A DNA stretch of 64,000 nt from a virus: the IMG/VR virus record IMGVR_UViG_3300043775_000777, positions 26,683 through 90,682 of that record; one strand, written 5' to 3'. This document shows, piece by piece, positions 3,001-42,544 of this stretch. How positions within the stretch are numbered: position 1 is the first letter of the stretch; each line of letters starts with the position of its first letter. Under the pieces are notes generated by a model. The model ran no database searches. It was not told the DNA's origin and worked only from the letters and a program-made list of their open reading frames with translations. The position numbers and the translations under genes were made by a program.

Positions 3001-5546
3001 ATTATGCCACTGAGATAAATACTAAAGTAAAAGAGATAGCTGATAAATACAATGTGACAACATATCAGGTTAAAGATGGAGATAATCAACAATGGAATAC
3101 TGAGTATAATGAAATGATGCAAAATCTTTTTGATAAAGCTAAAGCAGTTGCTTTATCTGAAAATAAAATTCTATTTACATCCAATACTAACCTGTTAAAA
3201 AATAATGCAGCTGCTTTTGATAAAGTTATTAATCTTACTGATAAAGAGTTTCAAAAAAGAATATCTGAAAGAGGTGCTAAGTATGACACAGCAGAATGGA
3301 AAAAACAAATTGAAGATGCAGTATCTAAAATTCCTAGTAACAAAGTAATAGTTACAGATAAGTATCTTTCTGATTTATTACCTACTCAACCGTCTACTAC
3401 TAGTACATCAGAATCAGTAGCAGATATTCCACAAAATAAAGTATCCGGAATAAATTCTTATGGTTCTACAGTAACAGCTAACAATGAAGCTATCAAAGCA
3501 CTTGGTCCAAATCCACATTCTATTGATATGATAGAAGCAGGATTTAGAACAAGAACAACCAGAAGTGAATCTGAAATGGCTAAATATGCTATTAAAGTTG
3601 GGGATACTATAAAACACTTTGGTAAATCTGCAGATGGTTCAACTAAAACTGTTTATGCTAAGGTAACTGCTATACATCCTAAAGGTTCTGAAGGTTGGAA
3701 AGGTACTTGGAATAAAGAAGGTTGGAGAGCTGAAGATGTAAATGTTATAGATAGATTTAAAGACGGTGCTGCTGCAATAGAGTTTGAAGTAATTCAACCA
3801 TCTACTCAACCTACTGAAGCTCCTGTAAGTAATACTAATAAACCTAAAGGTGAAGAAGTAGTACCTGGAATATATGTAAATCAAGCTGCTTTAAGTAAAG
3901 AAGAACAACTTGAATTGTTTGATTATTTAAAACCATATCTTGAAGAACAAGCTGATAAAAGTCTTAAAGCAACACAAGGTAGTAAAATGATTGGTCTTGG
4001 TTTAAGATGGGATTATACAAGTAATAATCCTGGAAAAACAACTGTTAACATCCCTGATCCAATAAAAAGAAATCCTAAATATGGTTATTATAACCAATCA
4101 GTTAATGGTCAACCTCTTGGACAAATTACACCAAGATTTAGAGAGTTAATGCAAAAAGCTACCGGAGTAGATATGACAAACTATGATGGTGCTATTATTA
4201 ATCTTTATGAAAAAGATACCTTTATATCTTCTCATAATGATGTAGATGAAAGTAAGTCAGCTATTAAGTATCCAGTTATTGGTATTAATCTAGGTGGTAA
4301 AGGTAATTTCTCAATTGAAAGAATACCAGGAGCAGGTCAATTAAGTTTAGAAGCCGGAACAGGTTATATATTTGGTGTTGATGGTGTTAATAGAGAAGTA
4401 TGGCACAGAACATTCCCGACTCCACAAGATACATTTTTACCAGAACTTACTACAAAAATTGATGGTAAAACATATCCTGCTGGTTCTTATAGGGTTACTA
4501 TTACTATGAGAAGAGTTATGCCTTTAGAACCTAGTATGCCTACAGCACCGGCTAAGATTACTACACAACCAGTTTCTCAACCTACTGAAGTTAAAGAAGG
4601 AGTACAAGATATATTTAATTCTAATCCAGAATTAGCTAGTATAGGAACACCTGAACAATATTCTCAATACTTAGATACTATATTTCCTGATAGTAAAGTA
4701 AAAGATATTGTTTATAGAGGTGCTGAAAAAGGCATAGAAAAACATAGAGCATATTCGCACTGGACTTTAAGAAAAGCTATTGCAGAAAACTTTGCTAAAC
4801 AAGGAGTTAACCTTAATAAAAAAGATGAATCAAAAAACACTGTTTATTTTGCGTTACTTAATATAAAAAATTTAATAAGAAGTATTGAAATAACAGATAA
4901 AGAACATAAAGAAAGAGGTTTTGATGCAGCAGCTTCATTTCCTAATCAGCAAAAACCAGATGGTACTTATTATAAGAATGAAGAAGCAAATGAATCTATA
5001 CAATTAATAGACAAAAATTTAAACAATGAGATAACTGTATTTGAACCAGAACAAATTCATATACTAGGAAACAAAGAAGACTTAAAAGGATTTAAACAGT
5101 TTGTACAAGGTAAACAATCTGTTAATGTTTCTGTAAGTCCAAAACCTGAAGCTACAATTGATACAGATATAAATGTATACAAAGATCTACTTGCTAAAAA
5201 CAATGGTGTTCAACCTCAGACATTTACTTCAGAGAATAGAATGTACAGACTAAATAAGTTTGGTAACTATGACTTAGTAGATAAAACTACCGGTGAAATA
5301 TATATGAGAAACATTAATATGGAGACAGGTAAACAGGAAACTGAACCAGGTCTTGATTCTCCTGTGGATCCTGTAGCTAAACAAGCTGCCCTTGATAAAA
5401 TCATCACTTTAAGAGCTACAATTAACATAGAAGAACAATTAGCAGTAATGGGTTATGATATTAATGATATAATCAATAATTTAGCAAATGCTAAGACTCA
5501 GGAAGACTTTAATAAAATAACTAAAATACTTGATAAATTATGTTAG
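3..5546 (+). CDS. Giant virion protein, 5'-truncated by the window; probable C-terminal part of the crAss-like virion RNA polymerase polyprotein with appended polyvalent modules
   Basis: The frame is open from nt 3, upstream of the ATG at 90. The N-terminal stretch LQGILDRAKESFPFELKL...MLQAGVDEEQIFFFLNQPLIAEY resembles, from memory, the post-catalytic motif (VDxAKDP...RxG...FxxQPII) of crAss-like RNAP subunits. The catalytic DxDxD motif is not in the window. SLOG-, P-loop-, ASCH-, AlkB- and ART-like modules follow. Confidence 0.65.
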   Translation, partial: SDVTSHALQGILDRAKESFPFELKLVPEAMDVFSYMLQAGVDEEQIFFFLNQPLIAEYFEKQKLKESAYSKIVGSKEKGSPANNIINNLLKNFDQASLNPLYDRINVAKLRYVLNGLKTKGEDQTYYFKIKKDSGIKEITLKDLLDRLNSGGLAPQNIERISTMPNMSNDSTVYFYSNAINSTENFAFATEVLSNEYLPKGDVPTKTLKDGVKDNKTMKALALFMNYLELERQFKGMNDLQQTFSPDTGKLTTVQQVLKRMEAYEELRKSKSIDQDFLNRLLKESILSSFNQDDLIKQLTEPLFNLRLNPEITKYISDAFVDQSKASRIRNNPTFGKGINGQERFSTLFNNGVINYIYQNYLSNFSNEKGELVNIPDTYKDNRPVIKVDNLDTDVEIVEEGIAINTRRIETDYANKAYLETSVAENNYGSRGLDTFKIKDDPFQTLASYYRYVIARESNRVNHPIESLENNSEFMRRVYAMGNANDAYESYISERALGASFNNKYIMGKTKYSYSDSLLNLINEFGDTLKVNYPITAQLSPGTNTEGAKVLQLNNQKEAQGELASVYYNNLRNLADPSVTKVQNKNKTDEENESDNQRISEMFNLFSLNMFYQHGVGKTRLGFIKALDPVQYKDIVEGGSKAFLKNYLSTEILDEIFNTVVSMDKFKNYLVSPEGYIHSDLATTETSKPTNDGTLETFDDSEGEDEVLVRLINQEDVNAFNDYVKKSGGKRPEKFFTSKTLYPAFYNSATGKREGMPQTAIWIKNQYGTYDMLDQETGEFYYENVNLATGMQITKKEDVQPTQPTVLTGFQGYKGGFPEQQTINGKLYKKGSENGDPKDYAMREIAGGFILELDPKRENDSSTGTTAKEYPNYREGVMVGSKNFYNDIVMLARNNEFKNKPLSEETKASIKDAHDEGVSFVVGDMPGVDSQFIDYLQEIGAKFTIYHTGTTPRVQVTQAPTQPSEVKIEPTDKIIWGHPTIGKSFLKKNQDNRFISLDDDYATEINTKVKEIADKYNVTTYQVKDGDNQQWNTEYNEMMQNLFDKAKAVALSENKILFTSNTNLLKNNAAAFDKVINLTDKEFQKRISERGAKYDTAEWKKQIEDAVSKIPSNKVIVTDKYLSDLLPTQPSTTSTSESVADIPQNKVSGINSYGSTVTANNEAIKALGPNPHSIDMIEAGFRTRTTRSESEMAKYAIKVGDTIKHFGKSADGSTKTVYAKVTAIHPKGSEGWKGTWNKEGWRAEDVNVIDRFKDGAAAIEFEVIQPSTQPTEAPVSNTNKPKGEEVVPGIYVNQAALSKEEQLELFDYLKPYLEEQADKSLKATQGSKMIGLGLRWDYTSNNPGKTTVNIPDPIKRNPKYGYYNQSVNGQPLGQITPRFRELMQKATGVDMTNYDGAIINLYEKDTFISSHNDVDESKSAIKYPVIGINLGGKGNFSIERIPGAGQLSLEAGTGYIFGVDGVNREVWHRTFPTPQDTFLPELTTKIDGKTYPAGSYRVTITMRRVMPLEPSMPTAPAKITTQPVSQPTEVKEGVQDIFNSNPELASIGTPEQYSQYLDTIFPDSKVKDIVYRGAEKGIEKHRAYSHWTLRKAIAENFAKQGVNLNKKDESKNTVYFALLNIKNLIRSIEITDKEHKERGFDAAASFPNQQKPDGTYYKNEEANESIQLIDKNLNNEITVFEPEQIHILGNKEDLKGFKQFVQGKQSVNVSVSPKPEATIDTDINVYKDLLAKNNGVQPQTFTSENRMYRLNKFGNYDLVDKTTGEIYMRNINMETGKQETEPGLDSPVDPVAKQAALDKIITLRATINIEEQLAVMGYDINDIINNLANAKTQEDFNKITKILDKLC
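2403..4590 (+). repeat. Five copies of a PTQP(S/T)-coding linker (core CTCAACC) separating domains
   Basis: Copies at 2403-2413, 2880-2894, 3381-3395, 3802-3819 and 4576-4590. CCTACTCAACCGTCT is identical in copies 2 and 3; CTCAACCTACTGAAG is identical in copies 4 and 5. Confidence 0.85.
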
Positions 5547-37596: not shown

Positions 37597-37842
37597 TTAC
37601 TGATAGGCAGAAGACATAAATTTCCTTAAATAAGGAAATGTATATTCTTCATTAGTATGCCCTAATACAGTATGATTACCGGAAACACCATTTTTTACTT
37701 CATAAGTAGAAAAGATTTTATATTTCCAATAACCATAATCATTAACATACCAACCTTCATGGGTATCTTCTCCTACATTGTATTTAACTACATTGTTATC
37801 AAAGACAATCCATCTGCAATAATTTAATACTGTTTTTTCCAT
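37597..37842 (-). CDS. Hypothetical protein
   Basis: 81-aa ORF. Confidence 0.6.
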   Translation of the reverse strand: MEKTVLNYCRWIVFDNNVVKYNVGEDTHEGWYVNDYGYWKYKIFSTYEVKNGVSGNHTVLGHTNEEYTFPYLRKFMSSAYQ

Positions 37843-37869
37843 TCTAAGTATAAGTTTAAGTGAATAAAT

Positions 37870-38770
37870 AAAGTTTCTATAAGTTAATTAATACACCACA
37901 GTTATAAGATTACGTTCACTACCTCAACAGGTTTCCTCTTACAACTGCAATGTATTAATACCACAAGTCAACCCCTGCTTTACAGGATGAGGGGTTATGC
38001 CTGAAACCTTGTGGTTAAATCAGATTCATTAGGTACTATAACAGTAATAATAACAATAACAATATTATTATGACATTCCATAGCCTTTCATTGACCGGTC
38101 CGATCTGGTATTGCTACCCAGACAAATCTCCGGACTATGGCAGTTACAAAGTAACATTTATCTACCCTTGTAGTGATAATAAACTATCACTCTGTGAGCT
38201 GAATCTGAATGCTCAACAGAAACCCGGTTCTTACATACTGAATCTCTATGAACCGGGAAGTTAAAGAGTATTGTTATTAGGTATAACCCACCATTAGTTA
38301 TTCTAGGTGCTACAACACCACAGTAAACTAATAAACTGTAACAAAGGTAATGCCTATCTGCTGTGTTAACTATGCTAAACAATAGGACTTGTGACCGGAA
38401 ATTACTGCTTTCCCGGAAGCCTTTACTGTGCTCATCTAACTAATACTATATATAATAGTAGTAATAGTAGTGTATTACTGATTCTGTGTAATGCTAAGTC
38501 TATGATTAGCCATATACTTAGTATTGTATAAGCTTTCACAAGCATTCTGTGACTGTTTCTGTTGGTATAATAATGCTGAGAGTTTGTCACTCAACCCCAA
38601 ACTAACCTACATTCATTCACAGTTTGTTATTAATTACTGCACATATATTACACTATGGGTATCTTCATTCCCGGGGGTAGTATGCAATAACTGTGCACTT
38701 TAGTCTTGACCATTCAATCAGCGGTTGTTGACCGGTAGTTGACCGCTGAAACAGTCTAACTATTTTTTTT
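37870..38770 (-). ncRNA. Candidate large (~900 nt) structured non-coding RNA
   Basis: No convincing ORF; at least nine stems, including nested ones (37960/38015, 38078/38140, 38172/38191, 38223/38257, 38718/38749); GCAA tetraloop and G-U pairs favour the - strand; early motif variant at 38772-38783 directly upstream. Confidence 0.6.
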
Positions 38771-38883
38771 AAAATTAAAGTTGCTTAAAGCTATTGTCTG
38801 AAAGACAATTAAACACATAGTATATACTATGGCTTCACTAAAAATAATAAGGGTGTATTTCTACACCCCTATTATCCTTGAGA

Positions 38884-39288
38884 TTATATCCCAATTTCCT
38901 CAGATACCTCAACCTCCTCAAAGTCATCATCAGAATTCTCAGAAGCAACAACAAGGCTTGATAATGTGTACCAAGGTTTACGCGCAGTTCCATCAGCATT
39001 CTTGCTTCTAGAAACTTTACCTAAGTAGGTTTCCCCTACCTCCATACCTTGCTCATAGCTAGTACTATACACTACTATATCAGCTTTGGTGTGGCTGTTA
39101 CCATTATCATCAGTAAACCTGATAGTTGCTAACTTGTAGGTTAGGGTATCCCCGTTACCATTAGTGTAAGTGAACTCTTTATCACTTAATCTAACCAAGG
39201 TAGCCTTAATGTTGGCAACCTTTTGCACATTACCACTAGGTGTTGTTTCTTCCTTAAACACCAACGCAATCTTTTTCTTTTCAATCAT
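38884..39288 (-). CDS. Beta-rich protein with acidic tail (possible OB-fold/SSB-like)
   Basis: Alternating beta pattern; tail DDDFEEVEVSEEIGI. Confidence 0.55.
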   Translation of the reverse strand: MIEKKKIALVFKEETTPSGNVQKVANIKATLVRLSDKEFTYTNGNGDTLTYKLATIRFTDDNGNSHTKADIVVYSTSYEQGMEVGETYLGKVSRSKNADGTARKPWYTLSSLVVASENSDDDFEEVEVSEEIGI

Positions 39289-39406
39289 AACTTTTTGATT
39301 TTTGGGTTAATAATAATTTTCTTACAATAAAAGTTGCAAAAGGCTAAGCCGAAGGCTTCCAACACTGTCTGTTATTAACTCTCTCTCAGCTTAAATAAAA
39401 AGGGGA

Positions 39407-39619
39407 TTACTCCCCTAATTTATTTTCTGCTTGTGTTACAAGTGGCTCTATAATACCTTCTTGTATGTCATCTCTAAATGCTTTTAGAGTATCTATTGCT
39501 ATGCTAAGTTCATATTTATCATAAGAAATCAAATCACTATCTGTTTTTATGACTCTTTCATAAAGACTAATCTTTGCATTAAGCATTGCAATAATGTGTA
39601 ATACCGTTTCTGTGTCCAT
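39407..39619 (-). CDS. Early hypothetical protein (70 aa)
   Basis: Start MDTETV 18 nt after the motif; stop in terminator loop. Confidence 0.7.
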   Translation of the reverse strand: MDTETVLHIIAMLNAKISLYERVIKTDSDLISYDKYELSIAIDTLKAFRDDIQEGIIEPLVTQAENKLGE

Positions 39620-39686
39620 ATTATATAGTTTAAGATTAAATAAAAGTTGTCTGTGTAAATAGAAAGGGGAACAATGTCCCCTATAT

Positions 39687-40073
39687 CTATGGCTTAACAG
39701 GTGCTTCCAACAACTGAAACAAATCATCTTTGTCTAACAGTTTGTGTATGTCTGCCTGATATCTGTATAATTCAGTACGATATCTGTCCCAAGCACCATA
39801 ATCAGCACACACAAGTTTAAGTTTCAGAACATTAGCTTTGGATTCTTCATAATCTTTGGAATCCATACCAAGTTCTTTACTAGCATTAATCTGGCTATTC
39901 AACACGCCTATTGCAAAGACATATTGTTTATCAGAACTACCCTTGTCAATAGAAATGTTGTTGTTAACATAAATCTCAGGAATAGAATTTATTGATTCCA
40001 TTAATTGAGAACACATTTCTTGTGCAAATTCAAAATCTGCTTTTGCTTGTTTGTAAGCTTCTAACTTTTTCAT
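39687..40073 (-). CDS. Early hypothetical protein
   Basis: 128 aa, with motif and terminator. Confidence 0.7.
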   Translation of the reverse strand: MKKLEAYKQAKADFEFAQEMCSQLMESINSIPEIYVNNNISIDKGSSDKQYVFAIGVLNSQINASKELGMDSKDYEESKANVLKLKLVCADYGAWDRYRTELYRYQADIHKLLDKDDLFQLLEAPVKP

Positions 40074-40128
40074 AGTGTATATTTTAATATTTTATTTCAA
40101 TAAAAGTTGTAAAAAAATAAAGAGAGTA

Positions 40129-40275
40129 TTACACCCTCTCTATCTTTCTCTCCATATATAACTTTACATAGAGCTTTTCTAGTTTGTCTGAATCAACCAT
40201 ACTGTTCATTGCCTTAATAGCACTAAGCATAGTTTCATATTCTTCCCAACTAATTACAATAGTTACTTGTTCCAT
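40129..40275 (-). CDS. Early micro-protein (48 aa)
   Basis: Hand translation MEQVTIVISWEEYETML...KIERV; motif upstream, stop in hairpin. Confidence 0.65.
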   Translation of the reverse strand: MEQVTIVISWEEYETMLSAIKAMNSMVDSDKLEKLYVKLYMERKIERV

Positions 40276-40318
40276 AGTATATAATTTAGATTATATTAAA
40301 GTTGTTAAAAAGGGGATA

Positions 40319-40576
40319 TTACTCCCCTTCTTTCCAAGGTCTATACAGTCCTGATTCACAGATATTGTGTGCAAAAGAATTTAATTTCTTTTCAAAATCT
40401 TCAATATCAACTTCAGCATACCAACTTGTGCAATCTTTGTTAAATGATTCAAGAGCCTGTTTATATTTGTATGCTAAAAAATGATAGTCTATTCTTTTTT
40501 CTTCAGGATAACTGTGATAGTTTACTGAACGGTCTACCATACCTGATAGACTTTTAAATGCTTTTTCAAAGTTCAT
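40319..40576 (-). CDS. Early hypothetical protein
   Basis: 85 aa, with motif and terminator. Confidence 0.7.
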   Translation of the reverse strand: MNFEKAFKSLSGMVDRSVNYHSYPEEKRIDYHFLAYKYKQALESFNKDCTSWYAEVDIEDFEKKLNSFAHNICESGLYRPWKEGE

Positions 40577-40645
40577 ATTATATAGTTTTAATTTTCTTAA
40601 AATAAAAGTTGTTAAATGAAAAAGGGGATATAGTCCCCTTACTGA

Positions 40646-40714
40646 TTATCTCATTATGCGGTATTTAACATAACACAATAAGAATACAAATCCCCAAAGA
40701 ATTGCTGTTACCAT
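40646..40714 (-). CDS. 22-aa hydrophobic peptide
   Basis: MVTAILWGFVFLLCYVKYRIMR; has its own motif (40739) and terminator (40622). Confidence 0.55.
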   Translation of the reverse strand: MVTAILWGFVFLLCYVKYRIMR

Positions 40715-40790
40715 AGTTGTTAGTTTTAAATTTTAATAAAATAAAAGTTGCTATGTATAAATAAAAAGGGGGAATTTCTTCCCCCATAAA

Positions 40791-40973
40791 CTATACAACT
40801 AACAATGTATGTTCAGGGTGTATTATATGGTATTCTTCTACCAAACTATCCCTGTAAGCCTTTATCTCTTCTTCCGGCAATTGCTCAAATGCTTTTAACA
40901 TAGCTTTGTCAGCTTTTTTTCCTAATAAGATTAATATCCCATCAATCTCATCAATCATAAATTTTGTTATCAT
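40791..40973 (-). CDS. Early hypothetical protein
   Basis: 60 aa, with motif and terminator. Confidence 0.65.
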   Translation of the reverse strand: MITKFMIDEIDGILILLGKKADKAMLKAFEQLPEEEIKAYRDSLVEEYHIIHPEHTLLVV

Positions 40974-41021
40974 ATTGTATATATTTTTATTACAATAAAA
41001 GTTGAAATAAAAACTTAGGGA

Positions 41022-41210
41022 TTATCTCCCTAAGTCTTCATCATACTCAAATGTTCCGGTCTCTATGTATTCATAGATCTCATGCTTAGTAGCATAGTCT
41101 ACAACTTTGCCGTCTTCAAAGAACAGTGCATACTGTTTCCGGCCATCCATAGTCTGTTGATACTTAACTTGTCCTGTAAGTAACAACCAAATGAAAATAA
41201 CTTTTACCAT
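41022..41210 (-). CDS. Early hypothetical protein
   Basis: 62 aa, with motif and terminator. Confidence 0.65.
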   Translation of the reverse strand: MVKVIFIWLLLTGQVKYQQTMDGRKQYALFFEDGKVVDYATKHEIYEYIETGTFEYDEDLGR

Positions 41211-41255
41211 AATATATATTTCTAATGCAATAAAAGCTGTTTAAAAGAAGAAGGT

Positions 41256-41396
41256 TTATAAGCCTTCTTCTTCTTTATACTGTAGATATGATTCATATGC
41301 TGTTAAGCAATATGCATCATACTCTGCTTGTAATTCAGCACAAGAATTACAATGGTTTTCATCACCTAGTAAACAGGCACAAGTTGTATTTTCCAT
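41256..41396 (-). CDS. Early Cys-rich micro-protein (46 aa)
   Basis: MENTTCACLLGDENHCNSCAE...; CxC...CxxC. Confidence 0.6.
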   Translation of the reverse strand: MENTTCACLLGDENHCNSCAELQAEYDAYCLTAYESYLQYKEEEGL

Positions 41397-41443
41397 AATA
41401 TAAGTTTAGCACACAATAGAAGTTGTATTAAATAAAAAAGGAG

Positions 41444-41701
41444 CTATTGCTCCTTAATTATAATGTCTTTCAACCATTGGTTAATGAACTCTTCAGTTAC
41501 ATAACCTATTGGATCTTCCATACATCTAGTGTCCCACATTTCAAATGTAGTTACACCATCTCCTTTTAATCCAAATCCACCTCCTACAACACTAATCATT
41601 TCATCTTCATTAGGATATTGAAATGTCCAATGAGTTGCACCCGGTATTACACGGTGTGCCTTCCTGATAAAATCTTCAGGGAATCTTAATGCCTTTGTCA
41701 T
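41444..41701 (-). CDS. Early hypothetical protein
   Basis: 85 aa; ISVVGGGFGLKGDGVTTFEMW. Confidence 0.7.
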   Translation of the reverse strand: MTKALRFPEDFIRKAHRVIPGATHWTFQYPNEDEMISVVGGGFGLKGDGVTTFEMWDTRCMEDPIGYVTEEFINQWLKDIIIKEQ

Positions 41702-41753
41702 AATGTATAATTTATCATTAAATAAAAGCTGTTTAAATAAAAAAGAGCAAGGA

Positions 41754-41930
41754 TTATTCTCCCTGCTCTTTTACTCTACAAACATTAAACACAATGTATT
41801 CTCCCGCAGTATGTATCTCATATTTCTTGAGAATACCTTTGGTCATCCATTGATTCAATCTAGTTTGCATTTTAGTTAGTTCTCCTGCATCTGATGCAAG
41901 AAAACTATAAAGGTCAACACGTAGTTTCAT
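41754..41930 (-). CDS. Early micro-protein (58 aa)
   Basis: Hand translation MKLRVDLYSF...KEQGE. Confidence 0.65.
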   Translation of the reverse strand: MKLRVDLYSFLASDAGELTKMQTRLNQWMTKGILKKYEIHTAGEYIVFNVCRVKEQGE

Positions 41931-41995
41931 ATGTATAGTTTCTGTGGCAATAAAAGCTGAAAAATAAAAAGAGAGACATTGTCTCTCTCTTAATG

Positions 41996-42196
41996 CTATG
42001 CACCTTGTAGCTTTTCTTCTATGTGCATTATTAGGTTAAGCATTCCCATAATGGAGCAACCTGCTAATATAATACCCATAGTAATTAAACCTACCATTGG
42101 TGCAGTTGGTTCTACAGATAATACTCCGAAGAAGTATAAACAGAATGTGCCAAGGCCTGAAGCATATAGCACAATAAACTTAAGTAATTGTTTCAT
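41996..42196 (-). CDS. Early membrane protein (66 aa, 2 TM)
   Basis: Start MKQLLKF 18 nt after the motif at 42215. Confidence 0.65.
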   Translation of the reverse strand: MKQLLKFIVLYASGLGTFCLYFFGVLSVEPTAPMVGLITMGIILAGCSIMGMLNLIMHIEEKLQGA

Positions 42197-42327
42197 AGTA
42201 TATAATTTCTCATACAATAAAAGCTGTCTAACACAGAAAAAAAAGGGGATATCATCCCCTGTAGTGTTTAACTTTTCATAGCTTTTAGTTTTCATACAAT
42301 AAAAGCTGAATTAAAAAGCAATACAGG

Positions 42328-42510
42328 TTATTCCCCTGTATTACTTTCCATTGCTGATACAGCAGCTTCAATACCTTCTTGAACATAAGCTCTATATGCT
42401 TTTAAATCAGATAGCTCATATAGTTCTTTAAATGTCTTACCTTCTGTTTCTAAGGTAGCAATTGCTTTATCTAGCGTTTCAGCTAAATCAAATAGTTGGT
42501 TTGCAGTCAT
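42328..42510 (-). CDS. Early hypothetical protein (60 aa), first gene of the leftward unit
   Basis: Start MTANQL 18 nt after the motif at 42529. Confidence 0.65.
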   Translation of the reverse strand: MTANQLFDLAETLDKAIATLETEGKTFKELYELSDLKAYRAYVQEGIEAAVSAMESNTGE

Positions 42511-42544
42511 AGTTATTAGTTTCTCATACAATAGAAGTTGTGCT

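Follow-up and report, generated by a model that had tools for sequence, protein, structure and literature searches.

A mosaic non-coding locus in the early arm of a freshwater crAss-like phage, with a candidate structured RNA unit and a covarying 56-nt hairpin core

Introduction

Few known viruses are as abundant as the crAss-like phages. In one of these phages, phi14:2, the early arm contains two long intergenic regions that are transcribed in the sense direction and at higher levels than most of the genes (Drobysheva et al., 10.1101/2020.03.07.982082). These intergenic RNAs are seen from the earliest time point and are persistent, and the authors leave their functions open (10.1101/2020.03.07.982082). 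The locus that we describe here resembles them in its placement, as a gene-free 0.7-1.7 kb within the early arm, upstream of a replication block of small genes and PolB. Moreover, the region between genes g004 and g005 of phi14:2 also starts just after a TACCTTTG box. However, blastn revealed no sequence similarity between phi14:2 and the stretch that we analysed, and the expression of the unit described here is known only from metatranscriptome contigs. When the first 12 kb of phi14:2, both intergenic regions included, were searched with a model of the hairpin H presented below, no H element was found. Homology to the phi14:2 intergenic RNAs was rejected on both results.

Other phage RNAs are also relevant for comparison. 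GOLLD (RF01998) and ROOL (RF03087) resemble the locus in having several hundred nucleotides and many hairpins, and in occurring in phages and lake metagenomes. The original prediction, which was made from the sequence of the locus, saw in it a single ornate RNA of about 900 nt and likened it to these families. The kinship comes down to an analogy of size, since cmscan gave no match. GOLLD and ROOL are, in addition, single conserved architectures, whereas this locus is a mosaic of small portable modules of which only H, with its 56 nt, is widespread. In phage lambda, the nin-region terminators tR2-tR4 are read through by antitermination. The put RNAs of HK022, which consist of two stem-loops and have no U-tail, act on the transcribing polymerase.

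What is new in the present work is a minus-strand structured RNA unit with a core, H, that is supported by covariation and absent from Rfam. It gives the freshwater relatives a modular RNA locus at a position analogous to that of the early-arm 'long non-coding RNAs of unknown function' of phi14:2, the subject of the one transcriptome study on crAss-like phages.

Results

The gap lies at the end of an array of early mini-gene cassettes

The window, that is, the whole 64,000-nt stretch of DNA that was analysed, comprises bases 26683-90682 of a 115,433-bp IMG/VR record that is 97% complete. It has a GC content of about 32% and belongs to a freshwater crAss-like phage, and the stretch is present in DNA runs of lake and freshwater metagenomes. 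At its left end it encodes a giant protein, and its leftward-read genes include a replication block of the PolB type and many small genes. This leftward arm holds the gap, just downstream of about 14 self-contained mini-gene cassettes, in each of which the terminator of the previous gene is followed by the early motif CARCTTTTATTG, 17-24 nt and an ATG. The motif is found in 14 copies with 0-1 mismatch at 39325-42540, and downstream of H in only three weaker copies in 28 kb. Thus, H is the point of the window at which promoters for each cassette give way to a block that has hardly any. The GC skew has its minimum, and turns, at the strand switch near 42000, away from the gap.

The gap had been described as the largest non-coding stretch of the genome, and indeed nowhere else in the window do ORFs of at least 75 aa stay absent for as long as at 37843-38883. 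No ORF of more than 74 aa was found there under translation table 11 or with TAG read as Q, TGA as W or TAA as Q, which rules out that the gap is coding under another of these codes. Decayed genes were also rejected, as the six-frame peptides of the gap match only the collinear DNA of relatives. Neither the genes of the related loci compared (L002-L044 and L046-L048) nor those in the rest of the window showed protein-level similarity to it, and a blastn search of annotated phage records with the gap found no match.

Upstream of the gap lies a gene of 134 aa (38884-39288, minus strand), a conserved neighbour of the non-coding locus; in about 10 loci, a gene of the same family precedes the gap. 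Among the top 50 fold matches of its product in the PDB, almost all are SSB, RPA or PriB, although these matches are weak (E 1.6e-3, TM about 0.3-0.4), and its C-terminus is an acidic tail, SDDDFEEVEVSEEIGI. The product is probably an OB-fold, SSB-like protein. Downstream, the gap is followed by a gene of 81 aa (37597-37842), preceded on the minus strand by an early-type promoter variant, GAAACTTTATTT, and by the leader of this gene (37870-37886), with the same motif-to-ATG layout as in the cassettes.

Folding energy does not distinguish the gap from coding DNA

We searched the gap for inverted repeats and recovered every stem that the original prediction had listed, each at its position, together with the terminator and the early-motif variant that it had placed upstream. 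The terminator (38844-38875, minus strand) is the intrinsic terminator of the 134-aa gene: a 14-bp inverted repeat, 93% complementary, followed by a T-run. It gives the most negative local fold z-score (-6.3) and is outside the RNA unit. The early-motif variant (38772-38783, minus strand) is a degenerate copy of CARCTTTTATTG, namely CAACTTTAATTT, with two mismatches and no ORF behind it, and lacks the AAAyTATA..ATG part that is present in the other cassettes.

The impression of a region packed with stems was borne out only in part. As a whole, the 914 nt fold better than shuffled controls (z of -3.9 on the minus and -3.4 on the plus strand), which is only modestly above chance, but 160-nt windows fold no better than the coding neighbours. 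The extreme local z-scores obtained with such sliding windows belong to ordinary terminators. Since windows of the gap do not exceed the coding flanks in stability, stability alone is insufficient evidence, and folding energy, with similar z-scores for both strands, was rejected as a discriminator.

The window was also compared with known RNA families. Using cmscan and Rfam 15, the whole window gave 0 matches at the gathering threshold, and the segment 37600-39000, searched at E values up to 10, gave only chance-level matches to unrelated families. The 13 related loci that were compared with all Rfam 15 families had none at threshold except two tRNAs elsewhere. Neither in the window nor in these loci was there a match to a curated Rfam 15 covariance model of a self-cleaving ribozyme or riboswitch. 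ARAGORN found no tRNA or tmRNA in the window. The second intergenic region of phi14:2 (g005-g006) is a tmRNA by ARAGORN and Rfam, and the fact that the same tools find it provided the positive control.

The locus is a mosaic of modules

Altogether, 48 related loci were collected through the upstream 134-aa gene, the downstream gene and DNA patterns, and comparison with about 35 related IMG/VR loci allowed us to divide the gap into modules. Reading leftwards, these are A, P1, M2, B, H and C, followed by the promoter and leader of the next gene, with joints at 38391, 38339, 38016-38019 and about 37940. The locus pair L002/L025, whose 134-aa protein is 100% identical, matches the window at 94-95% from 38883 to 38392 and then jumps to 38015, so that 376 nt of the region (38391-38016), including module B, are missing. 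Locus L036 carries the whole region, and in L027 an insertion of 660 nt separates 38340 from 38339. Because relatives as close as these lack 376 nt or have 660 nt more, the pieces are portable modules. Moreover, the upstream stretch of about 350 nt is not conserved. In view of these three results we abandoned the idea of a single RNA of about 900 nt. More distant relatives have only short blocks in common with the window.

The degree of conservation also changes along the locus: the identity to L036 at the DNA level is 87.9% in the 134-aa gene, 67.4% at 38431-38883, which comprises the terminator and module A, and at least 93.5% from the core of P1 to H. A search for k-mers enriched in the gaps of 19 loci found again only H, P1 and a further module, D. 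This last module is structured, lies 3' of H in most relatives and is missing from the window. The accessory domains of the relatives are hypervariable.

Next, we scored the substitutions found in relatives on the minimum-energy fold of the window sequence alone. For the end of M2, B and H together, 23 pairs were kept and 13 broken on the minus strand, against 9 kept and 24 broken on the plus strand (Fisher p=0.0036), and pair-keeping on the minus strand also exceeded that of module A (p=0.00016). Note that slid controls also retain about half of their pairs in this test, which leaves B, taken as a whole, with moderate support. These counts for B and H, and the wobble pairs in H and C, agree with the preference for the minus strand that had been noticed at the outset. 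The covariation sought in relatives was likewise found in the downstream part, in which H has six changed pairs, C is compensated and B with H shows a one-strand bias, but not in the upstream half.

Module H is a hairpin with covarying stems and invariant loops

Module H (37960-38015, minus strand) is a hairpin of 56 nt with two stems, ACCACAAG/CUUGUGGU and AACCCCU/AGGGGUU. Its loops, the 11-nt internal GGUUUCAGGC and the apical CAUnCUGUAAAGC, are invariant. Searched with the pattern GGTTTCAGGC-N7-12-CATNCTGTAAAGC, it was found in 34 IMG/VR contigs, as a single copy per genome or locus. In the 23 distinct sequences, 98.6% of the cells are paired and six pairs have changed on both sides; 0 of 500 shuffles were as good. 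The commonest state of one pair is U.G, which is a mismatch on the other strand, and the folded strand of H is therefore the minus strand. Moreover, in a group of four contigs both stems are wholly replaced (GAGAGG/CCUCUC and ACUAC/GUAGU) and both loops are unchanged. Since the stems covary and the loops never change, we infer that a conserved partner recognises H, be it a protein or the transcription machinery.

The loops could possibly form a six-pair pseudoknot, UUUCAG with CUG-AAA. All the positions involved are invariant, and covariation is thus silent on it. The CUGUAAA of the apical loop matches a tRNA-Tyr anticodon loop. Mimicry of this tRNA was considered and rejected: the apical loop has 13 nt, and CUGUAAA overlaps the putative pseudoknot. 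H is absent from Rfam, both in the window and in the 13 related loci, and an exact scan with the invariant-loop pattern gave no match in 185,579 bacterial and archaeal genomes (one per species).

In 10 loci, representing about six distinct contexts, H is located 11-45 nt after a stop codon, and its neighbour genes differ between phages. A U-rich tail (at least 5 T in 8) follows it in 12 of the 18 distinct variants; in the window the tail is ATTAATAC, which is not U-rich. The divergent H group comes from an unrelated lambdoid-like phage with ERF, DnaB, YbcO, NinB and RusA, where H is inside a nin-like operon, between YbcO and NinB/RusA and 38 nt before the next ATG. As these 38 nt are too little for a promoter, H must be transcribed in this phage. 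In several relatives, the leader of the following gene comes immediately after H and D, and no canonical promoter separates them.

Modules B and C flank the core

Module B (38019-38339, minus strand) is a string of hairpins of 320 nt, an accessory insert present in only three genomes and 90-97% identical in L036 and L027. Individual helices of B have better support than the module as a whole: there is a C-G to U-A exchange in the CCCGG hairpin of a river variant and a coordinated inserted A-U pair in the same hairpin of L027, G-C is replaced by A-U in the GUGGUG hairpin, and two neighbouring U.G pairs have become C-G in the stem inside CCAUAG/CUAUGG. Single-base indels among the relatives rule out that B is coding. 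With just 3-4 homologues the structural support is thin: IMG/VR scans gave 8 contigs with M2 and only 2 with B, and a metagenome scan for further homologues of B or M2 yielded a single contig, of the L027 type.

Directly 3' of H, module C (37887-37959, minus strand) contains a 23-bp hairpin, the inverted repeat I1, with four G.U pairs. Its pairing survives in L023 and L009 through C-G/U.G and A-U/G.U exchanges, and in L009 a different lower stem is fully Watson-Crick. C travels with the promoter of the next gene, and in L009/L042 the variant GAAACTTTATTT is found with it. C is the probable end of the RNA unit. The alternative pairing of AGGTTTC with GAAACCT, which had been put forward as a second fold or pseudoknot, exists only in the downstream hairpin of the window type and is absent from most relatives.

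Promoter-like blocks and a neutral spacer precede the unit

Module P1 (38392-38480, minus strand) consists of an AT-rich palindrome and ACAGTAAAGGCTTCCGG, followed by a hairpin of CCGGGAAA and UUUCCGG. The window has a single copy, and 16 loci carry P1, which in every case precedes H, by 45 to 1122 nt. The 5' arm of the hairpin is invariant and the changes in the 3' arm are uncompensated. P1 is thus kept at the level of sequence, which suits a DNA site such as a promoter or an operator better than an RNA. There are no RNA-library contigs over it.

Module M2 (38340-38390, minus strand) is a nearly invariant block of 51 nt, present once in the window and 96-98% identical in 8 contigs, always upstream of H (by 0, 45, 320 or about 1000 nt). 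What lies 3' of its joint varies between relatives and may be B, H or other cargo. The block ends in TACCTTTG, which is located at 38349-38342, 3 nt before the joint of M2 and B, and matches the TAnnTTTG -7 box of Bacteroidota promoters. In the sigma-A pattern of these bacteria, TTTG at -33 and TAnnTTTG at -7 are followed by a start 5-8 nt downstream. No TTTG at the right spacing for a -33 box is found in M2, and the window shows no enrichment of the canonical TTTG..TAnnTTTG pattern. M2 is partly covered by two RNA-library contigs. Its layout would suit a promoter with transcription beginning at the joint, and M2 would be either such a promoter or the RNA's 5' domain. The promoter roles proposed for P1 and M2 derive from the single -7-like box and from the module boundaries.

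Module A (38431-38771, minus strand) is a non-coding spacer that evolves fast and does not conserve its predicted stems: substitutions kept 20 pairs and broke 57, the same on either strand, and the upstream-half stems TCAGCGGT/ACCGCTGA, TGCACA/TGTGCA and GCTAA/TTAGC are not preserved in relatives. The upstream stretch of about 350 nt evolves faster than the neighbouring gene. As judged by these comparisons, the upstream half of the gap is spacer rather than conserved RNA. Ornate-looking gaps may thus be half neutral spacer, and stems read by eye need comparative support.

The downstream half is enriched in RNA libraries

Contigs from four river metatranscriptomes cover the window from 37940 to 38328, 38326, 38367 or 38390 with one mismatch. 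They run 92 nt past H, into sequence unlike that of the window, and H is therefore not an efficient terminator in these contigs. Their depth is 10-28 in the unit and 2-8 in the flanking genes (flank contigs 95-98% identical), although the contigs are unstranded, the depth is possibly summed over strains sharing the module, and DNA carry-over may contribute. Module A appeared in one RNA run only, with a depth of 3. Behind the early-motif variant at 38772, from which the locus had been proposed to be expressed, contigs are either absent or about 9-fold shallower than in the unit, and that proposal is not supported. The contig ends at 38326, 38328, 38367 and 38390 were considered as a transcript start and rejected, because they coincide with joints of strain variants.

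Altogether, the unit was detected in 24 river and freshwater metatranscriptome runs (2018-2023), 11 of which contain at least half of its words, and little of the coding flanks is present in these runs. When a 1.7-kb query was used, only 20-29% of its words were found in the RNA runs, equal to the share of the query taken up by the unit. The downstream half is apparently transcribed, the unstranded contigs showing its presence and relative excess. The idea of a large structured phage RNA was thus retained for part of the gap, on the minus strand, outside Rfam and present in RNA libraries, but with about 0.5 kb rather than 0.9 kb.

Discussion

Our results suggest that the gap holds one minus-strand RNA unit of about 0.45-0.5 kb, which would run roughly from 38390 or 38335 to about 37887. 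It is preceded by about 450 nt that comprise both non-conserved spacer and promoter-like DNA. The unit would be assembled from a promoter-like block (P1 and/or M2), an optional B, then H and a closing C, and would sit at the end of the early cassette array and at the start of the leftward block towards the replication genes. H would be its functional core. We lean towards reading the unit as an RNA of the early phase or of a boundary, in which the core, recognised by a factor, serves as a terminator-like or stabilising element heading the long leftward block. In such a scheme, the locus would be transcribed early into a stable structured RNA, like the long intergenic regions of phi14:2, and H would act in cis as a terminator-like or stabilising boundary that sets how much transcription passes into the downstream block.

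The main rival to this boundary RNA is a stable non-coding RNA that acts in trans. The product would be either the 0.5-kb RNA or, where the promoter block abuts H, H alone, and its target would be a factor of the host or the phage, such as a defence nuclease or an RNA-binding protein, for which it would be a decoy, sponge or scaffold, with B and D as exchangeable arms. Several observations fit this proposal. The unit is more conserved than the neighbouring coding genes and is repeatedly recovered from RNA libraries; H combines invariant loops with covarying stems, as a recognition RNA would; it has passed from phage to unrelated phage, independently of particular neighbour genes; and hypervariable accessory domains are what an arms race would produce. 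As a precedent, the long non-coding RNAs of phi14:2 persist through infection and one of them, the tmRNA, is trans-acting. However, the H loop pattern is without a match in the 185,579 bacterial and archaeal genomes, the passage from H and D into the next leader in several relatives looks like a 5' UTR, and H is intercistronic in the lambdoid-like phage, so we consider an action in trans unlikely, if a serious contender. A more far-reaching proposal, which we rate as somewhat less likely still, is that H represents a new class of small pseudoknotted phage RNA that moves between unrelated freshwater phages and targets a conserved machine of the host, whether as an (anti)termination RNA that modifies the polymerase, as a cap that blocks exonucleases or as a defence-factor decoy; B and D would then be exchangeable cargo arms of a modular ncRNA platform.

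Two explanations without a dedicated RNA are less likely than an RNA acting in trans. If the hairpins formed in DNA, the locus could be a replication origin, a loading site for primase or SSB, or an N4-type hairpin promoter for a virion RNA polymerase. It contains AT-rich palindromes and short repeats at 38439-38480 and 38044-38074, it lies directly downstream of the probable SSB-like gene, H is single-copy and strand-specific, and DNA hairpins also tolerate G.T wobbles. We nevertheless find such a DNA element improbable: the unit is over-represented in 24 RNA libraries, H lies within an operon 38 nt before a start codon in the lambdoid-like phage, and the variation in length and content between close relatives would be unusual for an origin. 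Neither an iteron array nor a repeated box family was found in the inverted- and short-repeat search, and the GC skew turns near 42000, not at the gap. The remaining explanation invokes only ordinary signals, namely decayed early cassettes and a terminator, with the conservation resulting from recent recombination among co-circulating phages. The upstream half, which behaves as neutral DNA behind a degenerate cassette promoter, the ordinary local fold z-scores and the mosaic joints, a sign of frequent recombination, would all be expected from it. What makes it hard to credit for the whole gap is that the loops and pairing of H survive the full replacement of the stems in a distant phage group, which recent transfer cannot explain, that the changes in B and C are compensatory or wobble-preserving on one strand only, and that the gap has no protein-level similarity to the genes of the related loci or the rest of the window.

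With 56 nt, and found in more than 30 contigs and in two phage lineages, H is a small and testable handle. It can be used to study the switch from cassette-wise early transcription to the downstream block, or the role of abundant early RNAs.

The reading as a boundary RNA invites comparison with transcription terminators. As in an intrinsic terminator, a stable hairpin follows directly on a stop codon, and 12 of the 18 variants of H add a U-rich tail. Like lambda tR2-tR4, it is placed at the boundary of temporal blocks and, in one phage group, inside a nin-like operon. However, the invariant loops, the internal loop of 11 nt and the possible pseudoknot are features that a plain terminator can do without, neither the window nor a third of the variants has the U-tail, and the RNA-library contigs read through H. 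H may also be likened, by analogy only, to the HK022 put RNAs, since it is small and structured, has conserved unpaired bases and lies between a promoter-like block and a long gene block with multiple terminators.

Signs of module exchange around the hairpin module H

H, the 56-nt hairpin module with two covarying stems and invariant loops, also occurs in a lambdoid-like phage type that is unrelated to the window phage and carries ERF, DnaB, YbcO, NinB and RusA. In these loci (L012, L017, L020 and L041; for example L017:4755-4822, plus strand) both stems have been exchanged for other sequences while the loops are unaltered, and H has YbcO on one side and an 80-aa membrane protein on the other. 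None of the proteins of the lambdoid-like locus is similar to anything in the window.

In most relatives H is directly followed, on its 3' side, by a further module, D (L025:11307-11403, minus strand; L013:310-470; L019:1035-1178; and 10 more loci), which is not present in the window and of which L027 has two copies. Both ends of module D are invariant, the 5' end reading UACUCUCAUCCAAGCAGG or ..AAUUGCAGG and the 3' end CAAGGGUUGCAACCUUG-UGAGAGUAC, and together they form a conserved hairpin and a closing helix. The core that these enclose is hypervariable, measures about 50 to 115 nt and folds into arms that differ from phage to phage.

Contigs from river metatranscriptomes revealed at least two co-circulating variants that diverge from the window exactly at the module joints 37940, 38339 and 38391, one of them with approximately 9% divergence over 38177-38339. 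These variants point to module exchange ongoing in nature.

Genes near the non-coding locus

The upstream neighbour of the gap, the gene-free stretch that holds the non-coding locus, is a 134-aa gene (window 38884-39288, minus strand); about 10 relatives conserve a gene of its family in that place. The 134-aa product is probably an OB-fold, SSB-like protein, as judged from a structure model (mean pLDDT 73) whose best 50 PDB fold matches, all weak (E 1.6e-3, TM 0.3-0.4), were nearly all SSB, RPA or PriB. The C-terminal tail is acidic (SDDDFEEVEVSEEIGI).

A tRNA gene lies a few kb away from H in two relatives: L022:3655-3728 (plus strand) and L035:6157-6266 (minus strand). The latter matches over 110 nt a model of 71 positions, which suggests a long insert or intron.

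A tmRNA in phage phi14:2 and the early cassette array

In Cellulophaga phage phi14:2 (NC_021806), the g005-g006 transcript was described as a 'long non-coding RNA' of unknown function (10.1101/2020.03.07.982082). By sequence prediction this RNA is a tmRNA (4031-4500, plus strand), found by ARAGORN, with the predicted tag peptide GSSVQKLAMVA*, and by Rfam RF00023 (46 bits, E 1.4e-16, against a gathering score of 47). It is not among the listed features of NC_021806.

The early cassette array of the window (39325-42540, minus strand) is real: it holds 14 copies of CARCTTTTATTG (0-1 mismatch), each directly following a hairpin and T-run and lying 17-24 nt upstream of an ATG. Because the phi14:2 study did not find a common motif upstream of the early transcripts (10.1101/2020.03.07.982082), the window phage, with its 14 copies, may offer a readable early promoter.
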